Below are positions 979-10,382 of a DNA stretch of 10,382 nt, in pieces. This DNA is from Candidatus Thalassarchaeaceae archaeon (GTDB taxonomy: Archaea > Thermoplasmatota > Poseidoniia > Poseidoniales > Thalassarchaeaceae). The stretch lies in contig JASLKH010000073.1 of NCBI GenBank assembly GCA_030747675.1, forward strand, positions 1 through 10,382, read 5' to 3'. How positions within the stretch are numbered: position 1 is the stretch's first letter; the number at the start of each line of letters is the position of its first letter. A model generated the notes under the pieces. The model saw nothing but the letters and a program-made list of their open reading frames with translations, was not told where the DNA came from and did not search any database. The translations under genes and the position numbers were made by a program.

Positions 979-1575
979 TTAAGCCGTATTTTTGTAGTTC
1001 TCAGAAACAACTCTCCAATCCACTACGTTCCACCAAGCTGCAATATAATCTCCTCTCCCTGGCCCGAATTTCTTGTAGTATGCATGTTCCCAAACATCTA
1101 GTCCGAGAATAGGGTTACCACTTCCCTCCATCAAAGGATTATCTTGATTTGGAGTTGAGCAAATGCAGAGTCCCCCTCCATTGTCTACGCATAACCATGC
1201 CCAACCACTTCCAAATCTCGTCATTGCTGCATTGGCAAAATCTTGTTTCATTTTTTCAAAGGAACCGAAAGTTGCATCAATCGCTGCTCCGAGTTCTCCA
1301 CTGGGTTCACCACCACCATTTGGCGACATAGTTTCCCAGAAAAGACTGTGATTCCAATAACCTCCACCATTATTCCTTACAGATGCATTGCCATTATGGT
1401 TGGTTAGCAACTCCTCAATACTCATTCCAGACATTTCTGTTCCTTCAATTGCTGCGTTTAACTTAGCAGTGTAACCCGCATGATGCTTGCTATGATGTAT
1501 TTCCATTGTTAAAGCATCAAGATGCGGTTCAAGTGCATTGTATGCATATCCTAGTTTTGGTAGTTCAAATGTCAT
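979..1575 (-). CDS. sodA: Superoxide dismutase, Fe/Mn family, with Mn-type signature residues (198 aa)
   Basis: [18 protein letters not shown] start with a GGGAGA SD-like element at 1579-1584; the track start at 1668 is an upstream extension overlapping the next gene. Metal ligands lie in HHSKHH, NH(SLFW) and [10 protein letters not shown](E)IH, NNGGG and NQD match the Mn-type determinants. Also contains FGSGWAWL. Confidence 0.97.
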
Positions 1576-1666
1576 GGTTCTCCCAGCACATAGGAGGAAG
1601 TTATCGACTATCAATGTGCGTATTGAATAGCGAATATTGATGGGGTGTGAATTCTGGCTATCGTTC

Positions 1667-2623
1667 ATGGCGAGGATTGCTATAACTGATGGAATGGCTA
1701 CTGGTGCTGTCGAACGTTTGCGAAAGGCAGGTCACGATGTTGATGTCGAGCCAAACGCTCTCAATGGATTCGATGCGGTCGTCATTCGAAGTGCAACAAA
1801 AATGACTGAATCAGCAATCGCTGCTGCACCTTCTTTGAAACTCATTGGAAGAGCAGGTGTTGGAGTCGACAATATCGACTTGGATGCTGCTACAAAATCA
1901 GGGATATTGGTTTGTAACACACCAGCATCTTCGACGCATTCCGTAGTAGAGATGACCATCGCCCATTTGCTCGCTTCAATTCGTTTTTTACCGAAAGCTG
2001 ACCGTGACCTGAGGGATGGAAAATGGTCAAAAAAGTCGCTCAAGGGTTCAGAACTAGCAGGAAAGAGGCTGGGATTAATTGGCTTTGGAAGGATTGCACA
2101 GGGGGTTGGACGAGTTGCCCAAGCAATAGGCATGGAAGTACATGCTTATGACCCATATTTACCAGAGCATGTTGCTAGAGATCAAAATTGTCAACTACAT
2201 AGCAATGTAAAAGATGTATTTTCGATATGTACGCACATATCTGTCCATTGTAATTTAACTGACGAAACTCATCATCTAGTAAATGATGAGACTCTTCAAT
2301 TGATGCCAGGTGTTGGCGCTGATGGAATTGATTGCGGCAATCACTTGGTGAATTGCGCCAGGGGCGGTGTTGTCGATGAAATGGCTGCTCTTAAATCCCT
2401 AGAATCTGGACAATTGGCTTCCTGCGCTCTTGATGTGTTTGAAATTGAGCCCGTAGGGGATCATCCAATCATTCAACATCAATCATTCCATGGTACGCCG
2501 CATATTGGTGCTGCGACTAAAGAAGCCCAAGGGCGAATTGGAAATGAAATGGCAGATTTGTTAATTGGATTTTTCAGGGGGGAAACTCCTAATTCTGTAG
2601 TCAACCGCCAAGTCTTGAATTAG
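1667..2623 (+). CDS. serA: D-3-phosphoglycerate dehydrogenase-like D-isomer-specific 2-hydroxyacid dehydrogenase, short form without ACT domain (318 aa)
   Basis: Start MARIAITDG at 1667 (track start 1637 is an extension). Motifs: [15 protein letters not shown], Rossmann [12 protein letters not shown], catalytic Arg in NCARGG, Glu in DVFEIEP, His in TPHIGAAT. The family call is confident, but substrate specificity (3-PGA versus another 2-hydroxyacid) is less so. Confidence 0.78.
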
Positions 2624-2659: not shown

Positions 2660-3769
2660 ATGGGCGAACGCATTCTCATTCATTGTGATTTGGATGCTTT
2701 TTTTGCATCTGTTGAAACTATTCACCAAAATTTGGATCCAACTCTGCCATTGATAATTGGCTCCGATCCCAAAAAGGGGTTGGGGCGAGGCATTGTATCG
2801 ACTTGCAACTATGCTGCTCGCGAATATGGTATCCGTTCAGCAATGCCAATTTCAGAAGCATGGAGGCGATGCCCAGGGTCGCCAGTCGGGAATGGTATTT
2901 ACTTACGGAGCAGATTCCGACTTTATCGAAGAGCATCTAAACGCGTCATGAGAATATTATATTCAAATGCCGATAAATTTGAACGTGCTAGTATCGATGA
3001 AGCATACCTAGATGTTACTGAAAGATGTGATGGAGATTGGGATAAAGCATTCTTACTCGCTCAAAAAATGCAAAGTGATATTTTGGATGATATTCAACTG
3101 TCTGCATCCTTTGGAATCGGACCTACGCGCATCATCGCTAAAATGGCTAGTGAACAACGTAAACCAGGTGGTATTTTCCTAGTTCCATCTGGTGGTTTTC
3201 AACAATTCTTTGAGCCACATCCTTGCAGAGCAGTCCCAGGTATTGGGAAAAAGGCCGCCCAATTATTGGGTGAAATGGGAGTTATGACTCTAAGCGATGC
3301 ATATGAAGAGGGTCCAGATTCTCTGATCCAATACCTAGGTCAGCGACGAGGAGAAAATCTGTGGGCTATATTGGAAGGTCGTTCATCAAACGAAGTATCG
3401 ACCCTTCGGACAAGGAAATCAATCAGTAAGGAAAAAACATTCCAGCATGATCAAAAAAATGTCGAAGTTGTATTTCATTCATTGGATACTTTAATCGAAA
3501 AAATAAGCAATAAGTTGCTACAATTAGAAATAACCGCTCGCAATGTTGAAGTGAAAATCAGATACAAAGGCTTTGAAACATTTACCCACGCAAGGTCATT
3601 ACCAGTATCGATGGATGATATTGATGTATTTCGCCGAATTGCAACTCGACTGCTTACAGAACTCTATGATGCGGACCGTCCAGTCCGATTAATTGGATTC
3701 AAGTTGGGTGATTTGGAAGCACCACCTAATCGGCAATCTACACTAGATAGGTTCCATGAAGAAGAGTAA
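2660..3769 (+). CDS. dinB: Y-family DNA polymerase IV (DinB/Dpo4-like), 369 aa
   Basis: Motif I HCDLDAFFASVE, STCNYAAREYGIRSAMP, motif III SIDEAYLD, AKMASEQRKPGG, HhH VPGIGKK, little-finger region RKSISKEKTF...VKIRY...VRLIG, and a C-terminal QSTLDRF clamp-binding-like motif. Confidence 0.96.
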   Translation: MGERILIHCDLDAFFASVETIHQNLDPTLPLIIGSDPKKGLGRGIVSTCNYAAREYGIRSAMPISEAWRRCPGSPVGNGIYLRSRFRLYRRASKRVMRILYSNADKFERASIDEAYLDVTERCDGDWDKAFLLAQKMQSDILDDIQLSASFGIGPTRIIAKMASEQRKPGGIFLVPSGGFQQFFEPHPCRAVPGIGKKAAQLLGEMGVMTLSDAYEEGPDSLIQYLGQRRGENLWAILEGRSSNEVSTLRTRKSISKEKTFQHDQKNVEVVFHSLDTLIEKISNKLLQLEITARNVEVKIRYKGFETFTHARSLPVSMDDIDVFRRIATRLLTELYDADRPVRLIGFKLGDLEAPPNRQSTLDRFHEEE

Positions 3770-3799: not shown

Positions 3800-4777
3800 A
3801 TGGAGACGCTTCGTTGCTATGTCACTGGTGGCAGTGGGCATCTTGGAGCGAATTTAGTACGTCAATTACTCCATTCGGGGCATGAAGTAAAATGTCTAGT
3901 CAGGAAGGATACTCGGGCTTTAGATGGCTTAGACGTTGAATTGTGTACAGGTAGTTTGCAATCATTAGATGAGATGGCATCAAACATGCGTGGAAATGAT
4001 GTTGTCATACATTCAGCAGGATTTGTTGCCGTCGAGAAATCAAACATTAATATTATGGAAAAAATAAATGTTGACGGGACTAGAATAATGGCGCAAGCCG
4101 CACTTCAAGAAAATGTTGACAAGTTCATTCACATTTCATCAGTCCATGCCTTTCAACAGCGCCCTACAAAAGAGACCTTGAATGAAAACCGCCCGTTAGT
4201 ATCATCAACCAAGGCTGCACCTTATGATCGAACAAAGGCAGCTGGACAGCGCGAGATATTGAATGCTGTTGGAAATGGCCTTGATGCAACGATATTACAC
4301 CCGACTGGTATTTTGGGGCCGTATGATTGGAAACCTAGTAGGATGGGTCAGGTATTACTCGATATTTCCAAAGGAAAAATGCCATTTTCCATCAATAATG
4401 GATTCAATTGGGTCGATGCCCGTGATGTAAGTACAACATGCATATCAGCCATTAATAAAGGGCGCTGTGGCCAAAATTATATTGTCCCTGGGTCGTGGAA
4501 TTCGATGAAGGAAATTGCAACTATGTGTGGCAAGAAACCAATACTAACTCTCCCCTTTTGGACAGCTTACCTTGCTCTTCCTTTCGCAGGTGTAAAATCA
4601 GTCATTACGAAAAAAAGACCCTCTGTTAGTCGCGGTTCACTTCACGCATTAGCAGTCCAATGTAGGGACATTCCGGGAACATTGGCGCGTGAAGAGTTGG
4701 GCCATTTTAATCGGCCATTATCTGAAACAATAAATGATTCAATTAGTTGGTTCAAGGCGCAGAATAGATTGGGGTGA
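3800..4777 (+). CDS. Extended SDR, NAD(P)-dependent epimerase/dehydratase family (dihydroflavonol-4-reductase / HpnA / 3beta-HSD-like), 325 aa
   Basis: N-terminal TGGSGHLG Rossmann motif (3824-3847), VIHSAG, INVDGT, HISS (catalytic Ser), YDRTK (YxxxK, 4223-4237), ILHPTGILGPYD, NWVDARDV and GRCGQNYI. Confidence 0.87.
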   Translation: METLRCYVTGGSGHLGANLVRQLLHSGHEVKCLVRKDTRALDGLDVELCTGSLQSLDEMASNMRGNDVVIHSAGFVAVEKSNINIMEKINVDGTRIMAQAALQENVDKFIHISSVHAFQQRPTKETLNENRPLVSSTKAAPYDRTKAAGQREILNAVGNGLDATILHPTGILGPYDWKPSRMGQVLLDISKGKMPFSINNGFNWVDARDVSTTCISAINKGRCGQNYIVPGSWNSMKEIATMCGKKPILTLPFWTAYLALPFAGVKSVITKKRPSVSRGSLHALAVQCRDIPGTLAREELGHFNRPLSETINDSISWFKAQNRLG

Positions 4778-4778
4778 A

Positions 4779-5555
4779 ATGTTGGGTATCGGAACTGAAC
4801 AATACAACATCGCCTTATGGATTTGGATAGCTATTGCTTCACTTACATTTCTTACTTTGATGTTTGTTCGTGCACCATACGGTCGCCATGAAAGGCCAGG
4901 TTGGGGTCCTAGGATTTCATCTCGCCTCGGTTGGATTATCATGGAGTCACCCAGCGTCATAGTAATGTCCATCTTTTTTGGTATATATGCAGTAAAATGG
5001 GGCACTACAGATTGGGTTGCAATCACATTTTTCATAATGTGGATTAGCCATTATTCCCATCGGAGTTTCATATGGCCAGTGAGGGCGAAAGTGGCACACA
5101 AAATGATGCCGTTGAGTATTGTATTATTTGCAATAATATTCAATGGAATCAATACATGGTTTAATGCGGAGTGGATTTACGCACTGAATCACCCATATCC
5201 AGAGTACTGGTTTTACGGTTGGAAATTCCGTGTAGGTGCATTAATTTTCATCTCTGGAATGATGATCAACATCACATCAGACAACATTCTTTTTTCACTG
5301 CGAAATGGTGAAAATAAAGGTTATAGTATACCCCATGAAGGATTACACAAATGGGTATCTTGCCCGAACTATTTAGGTGAAATTTTGCAATGGATAGGTT
5401 GGGCGATAGCAACATGGTCACTTGCTGGATTATCTTTCGCCCTATGGACGATTGCTAACCTCGCCCCTCGTGCACGAGCAAATCATATTTGGTATCACGA
5501 ACAATTCCCTGATTACCCGAAGAATAGGAAGGCACTGATTCCAGGTATTTACTGA
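4779..5555 (+). CDS. 3-oxo-5-alpha-steroid 4-dehydrogenase / steroid 5-alpha-reductase family protein (SRD5A1/2, DET2-like), 258 aa, integral membrane
   Basis: Start MLGIGTE at 4779, 1 nt after the SDR stop (GGGGTGA-A-ATG); the track start at 4734 is an extension. Motifs: APYGRH, WIIMESP (catalytic Glu), HYSHRS (catalytic Tyr), NG, INITSDNILFSLR, YSIP, VSCPNYLGEI, WAIATWS, NLAPRA..NH..Y and FPDYPKNRKALIP. Several hydrophobic helices. Confidence 0.92.
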   Translation: MLGIGTEQYNIALWIWIAIASLTFLTLMFVRAPYGRHERPGWGPRISSRLGWIIMESPSVIVMSIFFGIYAVKWGTTDWVAITFFIMWISHYSHRSFIWPVRAKVAHKMMPLSIVLFAIIFNGINTWFNAEWIYALNHPYPEYWFYGWKFRVGALIFISGMMINITSDNILFSLRNGENKGYSIPHEGLHKWVSCPNYLGEILQWIGWAIATWSLAGLSFALWTIANLAPRARANHIWYHEQFPDYPKNRKALIPGIY

Positions 5556-8029
5556 AGATGATGCATTGCTTTTAGCGCCCCTTCGAATTCTGTAATTTCA
5601 CTAGGGATTTTAACCCCTGATATCTCTGCTTTCAAACTAAGCCCTGCCTCTTTCTTTGCACGCCAAGTACCTGAGTTGAATTCGCAAAGAGTACTTGTTA
5701 AAGATCGCAAGCGCTCTGCCTCACTGTCGTCATCAATAGATGAAATTGGATATTCATCTACATCTACTGCACTAGTCCCATACAAAGTGTCACTAAGGTG
5801 ATGGCAGAAGAATGGGCAAATAGGGCTGAAAATTGTAAGCAAGTCCCTCACGATTCGATGTATGACCCAGGCCGCATTTAAGTCCCCATCATACAACCTA
5901 GTCTTTGCCATTTCCAACCAGTGGCTTGGCAGAACGTCCGTTCCGAAGTTTTTAATCGCTCTTGCAGCAGTGAATATGTCGATAGATTCCCAAGCATTCT
6001 TGACAGCTGAAAGGACACCAGCGAATTCAGAAAGTACCCAGCGATCTGCGACCTCTAAGTCAGATGGTAGAGTTTCCAAATCATTAGGTGCATCAAACTG
6101 GGAGGCAAATCGAGCCACATTGAAAATTTTAGTTAATACACCGAAATACTTCGCTTCAATTTCTTCAGGATTTATGTGGAAATCATCACCCACCTGGGCA
6201 TCACAGGCTTTCCATAATCGGAAACATTCTGAGCCGATTTTATTGGCCTTGAGCTGCACACTCTTCTCTGGTCCTTTAACGCGCCAGGAACCTGTTCGCC
6301 CACCTGCACCACATTCCAAAACGGAATCAGCATCAATACCATTTCCAAGCGATTTTGACATTTTACGCCCCCATGGATCCATACCTAAACCATCAATCCA
6401 AACATGCTTGAAACCAGGTTTGTCGAACAATAACACACTCTTCAATAGAGTATAGTACAACCATGTCCTTACAATTTCTTTACCCTGTGGCCTGAGTCCT
6501 GTTGGGAATGCTTTCTCGAAGGTATCCATCTGGTTGATGTAACCTGAAACAAAGAGATTTGAATTTGAGGAATCCATCCACGTATCGAAAACTTTCTCCT
6601 CACCAATAATGACTCCTAAATCTTCCTGCATATCCTCCCATGAACCCAAATCATCACGTGTTTCCCTATCCAAAACACGGCTACCTAGTGGTGGCACATC
6701 TTTCCATGGTTGCACATAAGTCCCCGGTGGAGGAACAATTACTCGCGAATTGTCCTCTGAGTACCAAATCGGAATTTCCGTGTGGTACCAACGACGGCGA
6801 CTTATTGGCCAATCGATGCTGATATTTTCCATCCAGTCGAGTAAGAATTGGCGATTTCGAGGTGGGTGAAATTCGATATCATCGATGTGTTCACGCATTC
6901 TCCCTTGGATATGCGTTTGCCTTACATACCACTCTTTTAGCAATATAATTTCGACTGGGTTTTTTCCACGTTCACTAACTGGGACCTCTTGCTCTTTTTC
7001 AACAATTTGTAAAATGGCACCCATTGCTTCTAAATCGGCAATCACTTTTGCTCTCGCATCATTTACCTTTAATCCAGAATATGGGCCTGCAATGGATGTC
7101 ATGCACCCGTCCAAATCAATCGCTTGGAATGGAGATAGTCCTAATTCCCTGAATACAGCAACGTCATTCTGGTCGCCGAATGAACAGACCATTAAAACCC
7201 CTGAACCAAATTCAGATTTCACTGAGGGATGCGTTCGAATTTCAACCGTCGCCTCTCTATTTTCTACTTCTACTGGCAGAACTATTTTTTGACCGACAAG
7301 GTGTCGATATCTATCGTCTTCAGGATGTACCACTACAACGCCACAAGCACAAATTAATTCTGGTCGCGTAGTCGATATGATGACTTCAGCACCACTCTCG
7401 GTATACCATTTTACATCCACTAACTTTGTCATTCGATTGAGTCTTTCAACTTCAGCATCAGCTATTGTCGTGCCTTCCACAGGATCGTAAATATTGGGCC
7501 GTAAATCTTCAACAATTTCTCCTCGACGAAATAAATCAACGAAAATAGCTTGCGTCACTGACCTATAATTTGGTGCATCTGTCAAATATTCCTTAGCAAA
7601 GTCGCAAGATAGACCCACTCTGCGAGCAGTATTGCGCATCGCGACAGTGTATTCCTCGATTGTATCTTTGCACAATTGTAAAAATTCTGCACGGTCATAT
7701 GATTTCATTTTCCGCTTAGTATTTTTTTCCACGGTGAATTCAATATTTATTCCATTCCGGTCAACACCCCATGGGAAGAATACTTCTTTCCCCAAAAGAC
7801 GTTGGCTACGTGCAATGACATCTATCATTGAATATTGTGCAACGGCACCGATGTGCCAAGTCCCACTCGGGTAAGGTGGAGGGGTATCGATAACGAATAC
7901 TTCCTTCCCAGAACCCGGGTTGAAACCATATCGATTATTGTAAAGTGAATCATCAGAATAATGCTCTTCTTGAATTCGTTTTTCAAGGTCAACAGACCAA
8001 CGCTTCTCAGATATTTTTGGTTTTGCCAT
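5549..8029 (-). CDS. valS: Valine--tRNA ligase, archaeal type (826 aa)
   Basis: Start MAKPKISEKRW at 8029 with a GGTGGGA SD 7 nt upstream; the track start at 8119 is an extension. Motifs: DTPPPYPSG..HIGA (HIGH equivalent), editing domain TTRPE and GSGVLMVCSFGD, DTWMDSS, LRPQG..I.RTW, KMSKSLGN, then an anticodon-binding helical domain. The bacterial C-terminal coiled coil is absent. Confidence 0.96.
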   Translation of the reverse strand: MAKPKISEKRWSVDLEKRIQEEHYSDDSLYNNRYGFNPGSGKEVFVIDTPPPYPSGTWHIGAVAQYSMIDVIARSQRLLGKEVFFPWGVDRNGINIEFTVEKNTKRKMKSYDRAEFLQLCKDTIEEYTVAMRNTARRVGLSCDFAKEYLTDAPNYRSVTQAIFVDLFRRGEIVEDLRPNIYDPVEGTTIADAEVERLNRMTKLVDVKWYTESGAEVIISTTRPELICACGVVVVHPEDDRYRHLVGQKIVLPVEVENREATVEIRTHPSVKSEFGSGVLMVCSFGDQNDVAVFRELGLSPFQAIDLDGCMTSIAGPYSGLKVNDARAKVIADLEAMGAILQIVEKEQEVPVSERGKNPVEIILLKEWYVRQTHIQGRMREHIDDIEFHPPRNRQFLLDWMENISIDWPISRRRWYHTEIPIWYSEDNSRVIVPPPGTYVQPWKDVPPLGSRVLDRETRDDLGSWEDMQEDLGVIIGEEKVFDTWMDSSNSNLFVSGYINQMDTFEKAFPTGLRPQGKEIVRTWLYYTLLKSVLLFDKPGFKHVWIDGLGMDPWGRKMSKSLGNGIDADSVLECGAGGRTGSWRVKGPEKSVQLKANKIGSECFRLWKACDAQVGDDFHINPEEIEAKYFGVLTKIFNVARFASQFDAPNDLETLPSDLEVADRWVLSEFAGVLSAVKNAWESIDIFTAARAIKNFGTDVLPSHWLEMAKTRLYDGDLNAAWVIHRIVRDLLTIFSPICPFFCHHLSDTLYGTSAVDVDEYPISSIDDDSEAERLRSLTSTLCEFNSGTWRAKKEAGLSLKAEISGVKIPSEITEFEGALKAMHHLQ

Positions 8030-8036
8030 TCGGTTT

Positions 8037-8065
8037 TCCCACCGGGGCCCTGAAACGGTTAATCG
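8037..8065 (-). promoter_or_regulatory. valS putative SD (GGTGGGA, 8037-8043) and TATA-like element (CGATTAACC, 8057-8065)
   Basis: The SD is complementary to the euryarchaeal anti-SD with a 7 nt spacer. The GATTAA hexamer ends 29 nt before the ATG. Confidence 0.45.
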
Positions 8066-8130
8066 ATACAGGTCCGGCCGAGCGTCGAGGCTTCTAGTTT
8101 TCAAGGCTCCCGTACTCATATTGGCGTGAG

Positions 8131-8173: not shown

Positions 8174-10382
8174 ATGACTAGCACTGATGGAGGGCCGAAA
8201 ACACCCTCTGGTCGCAAGCCTTTGGGCGCCCATGTTGGTGATTTCAAAAATAAAGTCCAGCGCAGCATTGCAGAATTTGAATCCGGGAAGGCCATGGGGA
8301 AAATCCTTTCAGCACCAAAATTAATTCGACGAGAATTGCAAGAAATGTCATTTGTTGGAGCGTTAACTAGATTTCCAGCCTTCACGGTAATCGCTTGTTT
8401 GATTTTGACAACGTTCCTGGCACTCGAATCAGGCATAACTGATCAATATACTGGTGAACGTTCAATGAACGTAAATGGAGACTTAGCTGCCTTCCTACCA
8501 GAAGGGAGTCAAGTTGCGGAAGACATCAAGGAAGTTGAAGCAGATTGGACAACAAATGTAATGATTGTATATGTCGAGTCTAACCAATTCAACATTACTA
8601 ACGTGGATATTTTGAACCAAATGGATGCCATCGAACAGGAATTGAACCGGGTTCCTTCCGATGAAGGTGAAAATGATGGGATCATCTATGTGTTGAGTAT
8701 ATCTTCAGTCATTAAGGAAATCAATTCTAGTGCTCCCCGTGTTGCAAAGGCATTTGCAACGAATTTGGGTACTGCAACAGGACTACCATCGGTCGCTGAA
8801 AATGCAACTGATGTCATCGATGAGTACGGGGGTGTTGTGGGCGGGTATGCGATACCTGAAGAACAAGACAGAGTCGATCAAATCATTGGCGAATTACCAG
8901 ACAACGCTCGAGACAAATTAGTTCGAGATGTAGGGTTGACTGAAAATGGTAAGACTATTGGTGAAAGTGCTGGGTATTGGAATAGAGCAGTGATTATCAT
9001 TGGTGTATCCGACAATGGCATAGGAATTGATGGACAACCAACTACGATTTCTGATTTAATTTCTGACACCCAGGCCCAAATCGATTCCATCGCAGACGAA
9101 AATGGCTGGGATAACCTGAGTTTAACCATGACATTGACAGGCCCTGTTCCCATCACCAATGCTGTTACAGAGTATACTTTCGCCCTATTTTGGAAAATTT
9201 TCCCAGTAGGAGTAGTCGCCGTCGCCCTCGTTCTCTTTACCTTCCATTGTGATGTAATACAGACGGGGAGAATCCGTGTAGTTCAGGGGATAAAGGTGGT
9301 GATCATAGCCGGTTTACCAACACTTTGCTCTGTTTTTGCTACACTGGGTTTGATTGGCCTTACCAATTATGAAGTTACAATGACTGTGATTATTGTAGGC
9401 CCTATCATTCTCGCTCTTGGCGTTTCGTATGGTTTACACATTACAAATCGCTATGCTGAATGCAAAGGCACCCCTAAAGAAAAAATGGCCCTTGCTCTTC
9501 AATCAACTGGTCGTGCCGTTTTTCTTTCTGCGGTCACGACAGTCATCGGTTTCGTATCGCTAATACTGACCCCTATGGCTCCAATCAAGACGGTTGGTGT
9601 TTCATTAGCAGGGGGAATCATCATTGTTTATCTTTACACGATGATGATGGTACCAAATCTCACAATGTTGCTTGATTTGGAAAAGCCTAGCCACCCGCCA
9701 CCGAAAATCTTTGTTGCGGCAGTTAGGGCACCAATTAAGTGGAGTAAAGTTGCCCTTACAGGTTTCATAATTTTGATGCTTTTCAGCGCACTCGTAAGTC
9801 GTACACAAGTAGTCGAAGACGTTGACTTACTGAGCATGGCCCCACAAGATGAGCCCGCCGTATCAAAGATGATTACCTATTCTGAAGAATTTGAAGCAGG
9901 GCAGGTTGGAATGATTTTAGTTAATGCCGATATTGAAGCTGATGCACAATTTTCTAATCAAGAATTTTCGGATCCTTACGATAATTTGGACAAAATTAGA
10001 ATACTTGCTGAAGAAGTGAATGATGTCAATAAAACCACAGCAGTTTCAATTGTGTTCCTGATGAAGTCAATTGGTGCATCTTTTAATTTATCAGGCGACG
10101 AAGTATCTACCCTTCTTTGTGACAATTTACCTGAAGATAGTGTTTTTGAAGAAGTATGTCGGATTTTATTTGACAGGGAATTCAATAACAAGGGTACATT
10201 TTGGGATGTTTTAAGAACACTCGATGCTGGTGACTCAGGAGGTCGTGAGTCACAATCATTCTTGATTTCAGTATTTTATGATAGTTTGACAGACGAAACA
10301 CGACATTTCTTCGTTTCCAAGGATTATCAGAAATCATTGATTTACATTGATATGCCTTTCATGCCAGTAAAAGAAACTGAAA
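8174..10382 (+). CDS. MMPL / RND-superfamily (HAE3-like) transporter, 3'-truncated (736 codons visible)
   Basis: Manual translation is stop-free from ATG 8174 (MTSTDGGPKTPSGRK...) to the edge. TM1 FPAFTVIACLILTTFLAL is followed by a large acidic loop (..LAAFLPEGS..), LTGPVPIT, then five TMs including PIILALGVSYGLHITNRY and TGRAVFLSAVTTVIGFVSL (MMPL signature GxAixxSaxTTxxGFxsL). A second repeat begins at WSKVALTGFIILMLFSAL...DLLSMAPQD. It is absent from the ORF track because it has no stop in the window. Confidence 0.88.
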   Translation, partial: MTSTDGGPKTPSGRKPLGAHVGDFKNKVQRSIAEFESGKAMGKILSAPKLIRRELQEMSFVGALTRFPAFTVIACLILTTFLALESGITDQYTGERSMNVNGDLAAFLPEGSQVAEDIKEVEADWTTNVMIVYVESNQFNITNVDILNQMDAIEQELNRVPSDEGENDGIIYVLSISSVIKEINSSAPRVAKAFATNLGTATGLPSVAENATDVIDEYGGVVGGYAIPEEQDRVDQIIGELPDNARDKLVRDVGLTENGKTIGESAGYWNRAVIIIGVSDNGIGIDGQPTTISDLISDTQAQIDSIADENGWDNLSLTMTLTGPVPITNAVTEYTFALFWKIFPVGVVAVALVLFTFHCDVIQTGRIRVVQGIKVVIIAGLPTLCSVFATLGLIGLTNYEVTMTVIIVGPIILALGVSYGLHITNRYAECKGTPKEKMALALQSTGRAVFLSAVTTVIGFVSLILTPMAPIKTVGVSLAGGIIIVYLYTMMMVPNLTMLLDLEKPSHPPPKIFVAAVRAPIKWSKVALTGFIILMLFSALVSRTQVVEDVDLLSMAPQDEPAVSKMITYSEEFEAGQVGMILVNADIEADAQFSNQEFSDPYDNLDKIRILAEEVNDVNKTTAVSIVFLMKSIGASFNLSGDEVSTLLCDNLPEDSVFEEVCRILFDREFNNKGTFWDVLRTLDAGDSGGRESQSFLISVFYDSLTDETRHFFVSKDYQKSLIYIDMPFMPVKETE

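Follow-up and report, generated by a model that had tools for sequence, protein, structure and literature searches.

A conserved pair of short-chain dehydrogenase/reductase and SRD5A-type reductase genes in Thalassarchaeaceae archaea, a candidate ene-reduction module for sterol-like lipids

Why does a planktonic archaeon carry a gene for a protein resembling steroid 5-alpha-reductases directly behind a gene for a short-chain dehydrogenase/reductase (SDR)? The question is raised by contig JASLKH010000073.1 (C73) of a Candidatus Thalassarchaeaceae archaeon (Poseidoniales; marine group IIb, MGIIb), a stretch of 10,382 nucleotides that we refer to as the window; the genome it belongs to comprises 1.68 Mb at a completeness of 78%. 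On the plus strand of the window lie an extended SDR of 325 amino acids (P0001, 3800-4777) and an SRD5A1/2-type seven-helix NADPH-dependent ene-reductase of 258 amino acids (P0002, 4779-5555), for which the SDR is put forward as the oxidoreductase partner, acting on a C3 hydroxy/oxo group (or on an allylic alcohol/aldehyde). The initial annotation, made from the letters of the window, had suggested that the pair converts phytoplankton sterols. Our analysis makes it very probable that the two proteins combine ene-reduction with carbonyl/alcohol interconversion on one lipid. That this lipid would be of the sterol or steroid type, and that the two-enzyme hydroxy/oxo and ene-reduction module would convert it to 5-alpha-stanones or stanols, we consider about an even chance (probability roughly 0.5).

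The reductase matches the Pfam family Steroid_dh (PF02544) with 165.6 bits at a gathering cut-off of 22.6, and Steroid_dh and DUF1295 are the only Pfam domains found in it. In pairwise HMMER comparisons with PDB chains, on which the class assignment rests, P0002 aligns end to end with PbSRD5A (chain 7c83; both proteins have 258 amino acids) at 44% identity, 219.9 bits and an E-value of 3.9e-64, with human SRD5A2 over residues 25-258 (129 bits, E 2.4e-36), and with the TECR protein art-1 at 57.7 bits (E 9.8e-15). The absence of the N-terminal ubiquitin-like domain that marks TECR enzymes, as put forward in the initial annotation, is borne out by the length of P0002, by the end-to-end alignment with PbSRD5A and by the lack of any further domain in Pfam. 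The comparison supports the assignment of P0002 to the SRD5A1/2 kind rather than to TECR-like enzymes. PbSRD5A (PDB 7C83; GenBank RIL07334.1) is the closest enzyme with measured activity, and shares with P0002 its length, fold class, Glu/Tyr pair and NADPH contacts. It reduces progesterone to 5-alpha-dihydroprogesterone in vitro and is inactive on testosterone, and its physiological substrate is not known (PMC7815742). From human SRD5A1 and SRD5A2 and from plant DET2, P0002 differs in being encoded by a prokaryotic gene in an operon with an SDR.

The catalytic residues of the family are conserved. Glu56 (codon 4944-4946, in the motif MESP) aligns with Glu57 of human SRD5A2, and Tyr92 (codon 5052-5054, in HY) with Tyr91, at exactly the codons to which the initial annotation had assigned them. 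Both are invariant in 90 reductase homologues, as are His91, Arg95, Asn125, Asp168, Arg175, Asn197, Tyr198, Glu201, Arg231 and His236. In human SRD5A2, NADPH is contacted by N160, D164, R171, N193, E197, R227, H231 and Y235 (PMC7815742). Seven of these eight contacts are identical in P0002 (N164, D168, R175, N197, E201, R231 and Y239), in agreement with the claim that the NADPH-binding motifs are kept; at the eighth, the human His231 corresponds to Asn235, next to the invariant His236.

The SDR shows the marks of the extended type, with a length of 325 residues in keeping with the usual 320-350 or so, an N-terminal Rossmann motif (TGGSGHLG) and a tetrad (N90, S113, Y142, K146) that is invariant in 63 partner SDRs. 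Among Pfam families, Epimerase (91.6 bits) scores above 3Beta_HSD (PF01073; 72.3 bits, cut-off 22). Scored along the whole of P0001, the best-fitting specific models are two NCBIfam models of triterpenoid/sterol C3 enzymes, HpnA (TIGR03466; 204.5 bits, curated cut-off 367.65) and SdmB (NF052578; 182.8 bits, curated cut-off 600). The description of P0001 as 3beta-HSD-like (hydroxysteroid dehydrogenase-like) holds to the extent that these models, and not those of sugar epimerases or flavonoid reductases, fit best; membership proper does not follow, as both curated cut-offs are missed. The best solved structure is 3wj7 (130 bits, full-length alignment), which we take to be Gox2253, and human NSDHL scores 57 bits. 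Gox2253 has been described as an aldehyde reductase (bioRxiv 10.64898/2026.10.06.757028). Look-ups in the ESM Atlas returned the same two families and nothing further.

In SDRs, NAD is selected by an acidic residue where beta-strand 2 ends, and an Arg-type pattern indicates NADP. P0001 has Arg at this position (residue 35), and Arg or His is found in 55 of the 63 partners, Asp or Glu in none, so that the cofactor motif looks to be of the NADP type. The initial annotation had envisaged an NAD-dependent 3beta-HSD/isomerase feeding the reductase; with Arg, or His in relatives, in place of the acidic NAD residue, a bidirectional or ketoreductase role, by analogy with SdmB, DHRSX and SpiR, would fit better. 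SdmB, like SdmC a reductase of bacterial sterol C-4 demethylation, is NADP-dependent, enzymes of its type both oxidize and reduce sterol C3, and the Calothrix SdmB alone yields lanosterone (PMC10202945). The context of the two model families differs from that of the window: no SdmA-like partner is present within the window, where an SRD5A reductase and not a Rieske oxygenase accompanies the SDR, and for HpnA, which belongs to hopanoid biosynthesis, a search of the window genome and of five carrier genomes gave no squalene-hopene cyclase domain.

Is the arrangement of the two genes meaningful? As the initial annotation stated, they are separated by a single nucleotide (A, 4778) in the junction TGA-A-ATG (4775-4781, plus strand), in which the SDR stop codon occupies 4775-4777 and the reductase start codon begins at 4779, just behind a Shine-Dalgarno-like GGGGTGA (4769-4775). 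An alternative start at the in-frame ATG 4734, which would overlap the SDR gene by 44 nucleotides, is not favoured: 4779 is the better start because the homologues align from its Met and because GGGGTGA closely precedes it. At its 3' end the reductase gene overlaps by 7 nucleotides (5549-5555) with the 3' end of the convergent valS gene. No intrinsic-terminator-like site was found between the reductase gene and valS, and scans for promoters and terminators gave nothing exceeding the shuffled expectation.

Across the order, the reductase is present in 26 of 401 Poseidoniales genomes (about 6%), distributed as 21 of 24 genomes in genus g5, 2 of 2 in g8, 2 of 22 in the genus of the window (window included) and 1 of 199 in the marine group IIa (MGIIa) family; many of the searched genomes are incomplete metagenome-assembled genomes (MAGs), so that "not found" does not equal "absent" in these counts. 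The SDR gene lies directly upstream on the same strand in every one of the 26 carriers, which settles the question of synteny that the initial annotation had posed. The pair is nevertheless no trait of the Poseidoniales at large, being near-universal in two genera and essentially not found in MGIIa. Where it occurs, the pair is kept at 52-77% identity in three genera at the same chromosomal site, and its GC content is that of its flanks. In five related genomes (88-96% complete) this site is empty and the flanks are contiguous, in the order dehydrogenase-(DinB)-valS-RND (resistance-nodulation-division) transporter. The pair is a clean presence/absence cassette at a fixed chromosomal site, and its SDR and reductase genes form a true operon. 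In the trees, the SDR and the reductase of the sole MGIIa carrier (L021, contig G368:C15) do not differ from those of the MGIIb record L056 (UBA126), and its contig is probably mis-binned. We found no paper on an SDR/SRD5A pair in Poseidoniales or Marinimicrobia in the literature.

The pair is probably not archaeal in origin, nor does it seem to be restricted to the sea. A scan of prokaryotes, with one genome per species, returned 80 loci, in most of which the SDR lies directly upstream; clustering of open reading frames (ORFs) gave 54 of 83 loci. These include Marinimicrobia, Dehalococcoidia, Anaerolineales, Myxococcota, Hydrogenedentota, Bdellovibrionales and Bacteroidota, and also Polyangium fumosum DSM 14668 (Myxococcota) and another archaeon of the Thermoplasmatota. 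When all neighbouring ORFs were clustered, the SDR was the sole conserved neighbour of the reductase. In Poseidoniales and Marinimicrobia the two genes overlap (TGATG), abut (TGAATG) or are separated by at most about 20 nucleotides; at some bacterial junctions there is no ATG within the 27 nucleotides examined. Two Heimdallarchaeia chromosomes (L071, L094; Heimdallarchaeum) encode a reductase that shares about 51% identity with P0002. No HpnA/SdmB-like SDR adjoins it, and in the tree these two reductases fall together with a sequence from a Spirochaetota genome.

The relationship between the archaeal and the Marinimicrobia pairs bears on their history. Within the Marinimicrobia phylum the reductase is found in 43 of 301 genomes, in about 11 of them as the archaeal-like type, and on the Marinimicrobia contigs the pair is surrounded by genes of bacterial type (a TonB-dependent receptor, a protein with a type IX secretion system (T9SS) tail, and the single-stranded DNA-binding protein SSB). 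About 29 small Marinimicrobia genomes (0.7-1.1 Mb) carry a second reductase type, 43-49% identical. Poseidoniales and Marinimicrobia form one clade, apart from the other bacteria, in the reductase tree (support 95) as well as in the SDR tree (support 100); a SAR86 reductase without an adjacent SDR joins this marine clade in the reductase tree. In a concatenated tree the marine clade has support 100/100, and Marinimicrobia stand beside the archaeal genus g8 with moderate support (85/88). The approximately unbiased (AU) test marginally rejected archaeal monophyly (p 0.038), for a group named after the tree was seen. As the SDR and reductase trees are congruent and the marine clade is supported at 100/100, the two genes evolve and move together, and the trees indicate that as a unit they have crossed the boundary between archaea and bacteria. 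The concatenated tree, the AU test and the single insertion site shared by three archaeal genera would be most simply accounted for by one gain from a bacterium early in the Thalassarchaeaceae, many later losses, and one passage of both genes together from archaea into Marinimicrobia; we infer the direction of these transfers. A recent transfer was ruled out by the GC content matching that of the flanks and by the conservation of the insertion site in three genera.

As the partner of the reductase is an adjacent and co-inherited carbonyl/alcohol oxidoreductase, the two enzymes would be expected to act consecutively on one substrate. P0002 would be an integral-membrane, NADPH-dependent ene-reductase that reduces a C=C bond conjugated to a carbonyl by placing a hydride on its beta-carbon, with Glu56 and Tyr92 polarizing the carbonyl and Glu56 giving the proton, while P0001, a cytoplasmic extended SDR, would turn the adjacent hydroxyl into a carbonyl and back. 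For both proteins the closest relatives that have been assayed, PbSRD5A (on progesterone) and SdmB/SdmC (on sterol C3), act on the steroid A-ring or C3. The substrate would most likely be a membrane-dissolved 3-hydroxy or 3-oxo sterol-like lipid from the environment that is brought to, or arrives in, the 3-oxo-delta4 form. The reductase would saturate this form to the 5-alpha-3-ketone, which the SDR would reduce to the 5-alpha-3-ol. The net reaction would lead from a stenol or stenone to a 5-alpha-stanol with consumption of NADPH; we infer the order of the steps, the direction of the SDR and what the substrate is. Searches for a squalene/oxidosqualene cyclase domain found none in the window genome (G000), in five carrier Poseidoniales (91-98% complete) or in five Marinimicrobia genomes. 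A sterol or other polycyclic substrate would therefore be exogenous, as the initial annotation had assumed.

Several known systems show how such a pair could work. SpiR and SpiE, encoded in an operon in some species, convert cholesterol to coprostanol with one SDR and one ene-reductase (bioRxiv 10.64898/2026.10.06.757028). DHRSX and SRD5A3 convert polyprenol to dolichol in three steps, in which one SDR makes the 2-enal and later re-reduces the product (PMC13586052). Both systems share the logic of one SDR that oxidizes the alcohol and finally reduces the carbonyl, with the ene-reductase acting in between, but their substrates differ, polyprenol for DHRSX/SRD5A3 and cholesterol for SpiR/SpiE. 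SpiE is moreover itself an SDR, an ene-reductase giving 5-beta products, and no membrane enzyme of the SRD5A kind; DHRSX and SpiR are members of the SDR family in general, which the publications consulted do not link to HpnA/SdmB-like proteins. Gut Bacteroidota cluster a 5-alpha-reductase with a 5-beta-reductase and a 3beta-HSDH (the isoallolithocholic acid, isoalloLCA, cluster). Like the window pair, this cluster joins a reductase of the SRD5A family to an SDR of the hydroxysteroid type, by which the 3-oxo product is reduced; in contrast to it, the reductase is accompanied by an Oxidored_FMN enzyme and by classical SDRs of about 265 amino acids, where the window has a single extended SDR of 325 amino acids and, in Pfam, no Oxidored_FMN gene.

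Against a steroid-type substrate stand a number of observations. The function of the SDR-coupled clade is assigned by homology, P0001 scores under the curated cut-offs of both HpnA and SdmB, and the chemistry of SRD5A3-type and TECR-type enzymes on linear lipids makes use of the same catalytic apparatus. In metagenome scans the closest relatives of PbSRD5A (71-76% identical; L131, L132) have no upstream SDR, and it is those at 50-59% identity that often do. In the clustering of neighbouring ORFs, no conserved gene for sterol uptake, isomerization or catabolism was found nearby. The module is also present in MAGs of Dehalococcoidia, Anaerolineales and Hydrogenedentota that, to judge by their isolate names, come from peat, fen and further non-marine settings; for this reason a marine-sterol context is not specific, and the tie to phytoplankton sterols drawn in the initial annotation has to be loosened.

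A further point against a steroid substrate concerns the "QEY" motif of human SRD5A2, whose Gln56 is replaced by Met55 in P0002, a change that the initial annotation had missed, and by Met in 88 of the 90 homologues, while PbSRD5A has Gln-Glu where P0002 has Met-Glu. The Q56A and Q56L mutants of human SRD5A2 are inactive (PMC7815742). The reductases of gut bacteria offer a comparison. In Bacteroidales the reductase is found in 78 of 401 genomes, and 15 of 20 loci (L224-L243), taken from lower-scoring matches, combine it with an Oxidored_FMN gene (about 410 amino acids) and one or two classical SDRs, the isoalloLCA cluster being recognized here by architecture alone. All 49 Bacteroidales reductases compared, which are about 33-40% identical to P0002, have His-Tyr, and all have Met-Glu except for two with Tyr-Glu. 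The Gln thus seems not to be required in prokaryotic enzymes that match the experimentally validated isoalloLCA cluster by architecture, and it may not be defining for the prokaryotic SRD5A family. Since the reductases with this bile-acid-cluster architecture carry Met-Glu, Met55 would be compatible with reduction of the steroid A-ring.

Which other substrates would account for the same pair? The relatives' activity on steroids could be promiscuous and the true substrate another carbonyl-conjugated alkene, such as an endogenous membrane lipid, a quinone or carotenoid derivative, or a 2-enoyl thioester. That PbSRD5A ignores testosterone and has no known natural substrate would agree with this, as would the replacement of Gln by Met in the QEY motif and the size of the family, which comprises 3899 clusters at E<=1e-3 with partners ranging from none to an extended SDR, an old yellow enzyme (OYE) together with classical SDRs, or a fused SRPBCC lipid-binding domain. 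We nevertheless regard such a substrate as rather unlikely, given that the pair has no conserved biosynthetic gene beside it that would speak for an endogenous pathway and that the nearest characterized relatives of both partners act on the steroid A-ring or C3. Two long representatives (P0402, P0353) are natural fusions of the reductase, one a protein of 415 amino acids with a C-terminal Polyketide_cyc2/SRPBCC lipid-binding domain and one of 573 amino acids with a PCMD domain, and the Polyketide_cyc2/SRPBCC fusion hints at delivery of a hydrophobic ligand; no fusion of SDR and reductase was found, the five long proteins among the best 150 representatives being without an SDR domain.

A linear allylic isoprenoid alcohol from the environment (such as phytol derived from chlorophyll, farnesol or geranylgeraniol) could likewise be saturated at its alpha unit, the SDR oxidizing it to the 2-enal, the reductase saturating C2=C3 and the SDR re-reducing the aldehyde, for example from phytol via phytenal and phytanal to dihydrophytol. 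We know of no enzyme of the SDR-coupled clade that acts on phytol-type substrates. The route has a precedent in DHRSX/SRD5A3, in which an enzyme of the SRD5A family reduces an SDR-made 2-enal (PMC13586052), and it would suit 3wj7, a presumed aldehyde reductase, as the closest solved relative of the SDR, the occurrence of the module in many habitats, as is the case for such isoprenoids, and the linear lipid monoolein that occupied the pocket of the PbSRD5A crystal. P0002 is however much nearer to steroid-assayed enzymes (44% to PbSRD5A), and the best specific models for the SDR are associated with sterols and triterpenoids, which in our view makes this route unlikely. More improbable still is that the pair supplies the missing step of the archaeal dolichol route, from polyprenol via polyprenal and dolichal to dolichol, for the dolichyl phosphate (Dol-P) of N-glycosylation. 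It is true that the alpha-unit reductase of archaeal Dol-P is not known and that SRD5A3-like proteins are reported to be absent from archaea (PMC5088576), and that the eukaryotic pathway pairs an SDR with an SRD5A enzyme (PMC13586052). But with the reductase in 26 of 401 Poseidoniales and 2 of 22 genomes of the window genus, and with the clean empty site described above, the distribution is too patchy for an essential carrier-lipid step; the module is also frequent in bacteria, where the carrier lipids are reported to be fully unsaturated bactoprenols (PMC5088576), and its conserved neighbours include no gene for glycosylation or a cis-prenyltransferase. Finally, that the genes are adjacent by chance, or are decaying passengers without function, is scarcely credible. 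Most genomes of the window genus do lack the pair, but both ORFs are intact with all catalytic residues kept, the identity across three genera at one site, the GC content and the congruent trees speak for maintained genes, and this conservation excludes decay or fortuitous adjacency. The reading we prefer remains the conversion of a sterol- or steroid-type substrate to 5-alpha-stanones or stanols.

The remaining genes of the window do not appear to belong to the module. Upstream lie a superoxide dismutase gene (979-1668, minus strand), a phosphoglycerate-dehydrogenase-like 2-hydroxyacid dehydrogenase gene (1637-2623) and the gene for DNA polymerase IV (DinB; 2660-3769, plus strand). Some genomes of the window genus have the DinB gene, while G016, G024, G025 and genus g5 lack it at this site; besides that of the pair, this is a second indel at one location. 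Downstream, the convergent valine-tRNA ligase gene (valS; 5549-8119, minus strand) is followed by a gene for an HAE3/MMPL-type RND transporter with a sterol-sensing-domain match (8174-10381, plus strand; Pfam Sterol-sensing 29 bits, Patched 24.6 bits; HpnN 52.7 bits at a cut-off of 752). This gene was considered as a third component and set aside, because it adjoins valS in genomes with and without the pair and because its HpnN score is so low; the RND transporter is a core gene.

On the way to the steranes of sediments, stenols are first reduced to 5-alpha-stanols. To our knowledge, the environmental organisms and genes responsible for stenol reduction have not been established. Stanol/stenol ratios serve to trace how microbes transform organic matter anaerobically (PMC7292411, citing Wakeham 1989). 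The SDR/SRD5A pair offers a compact and widespread two-gene candidate for this reaction, present in abundant plankton (MGIIb archaea and Marinimicrobia) and in Chloroflexota of sediment and peat. We tentatively raise the possibility, which we hold to be less likely than not, that the operon is the long-missing microbial system by which stenols in sea water, sediments and peat are hydrogenated to 5-alpha-stanols by way of delta4-3-ketones, with MGIIb and Marinimicrobia acting in the ocean water column. The pair is in any case a clear example of a metabolic operon common to archaea and bacteria of one habitat, and if its substrate should not be a sterol, it would still represent a new lipid-saturation step in many uncultured phyla.

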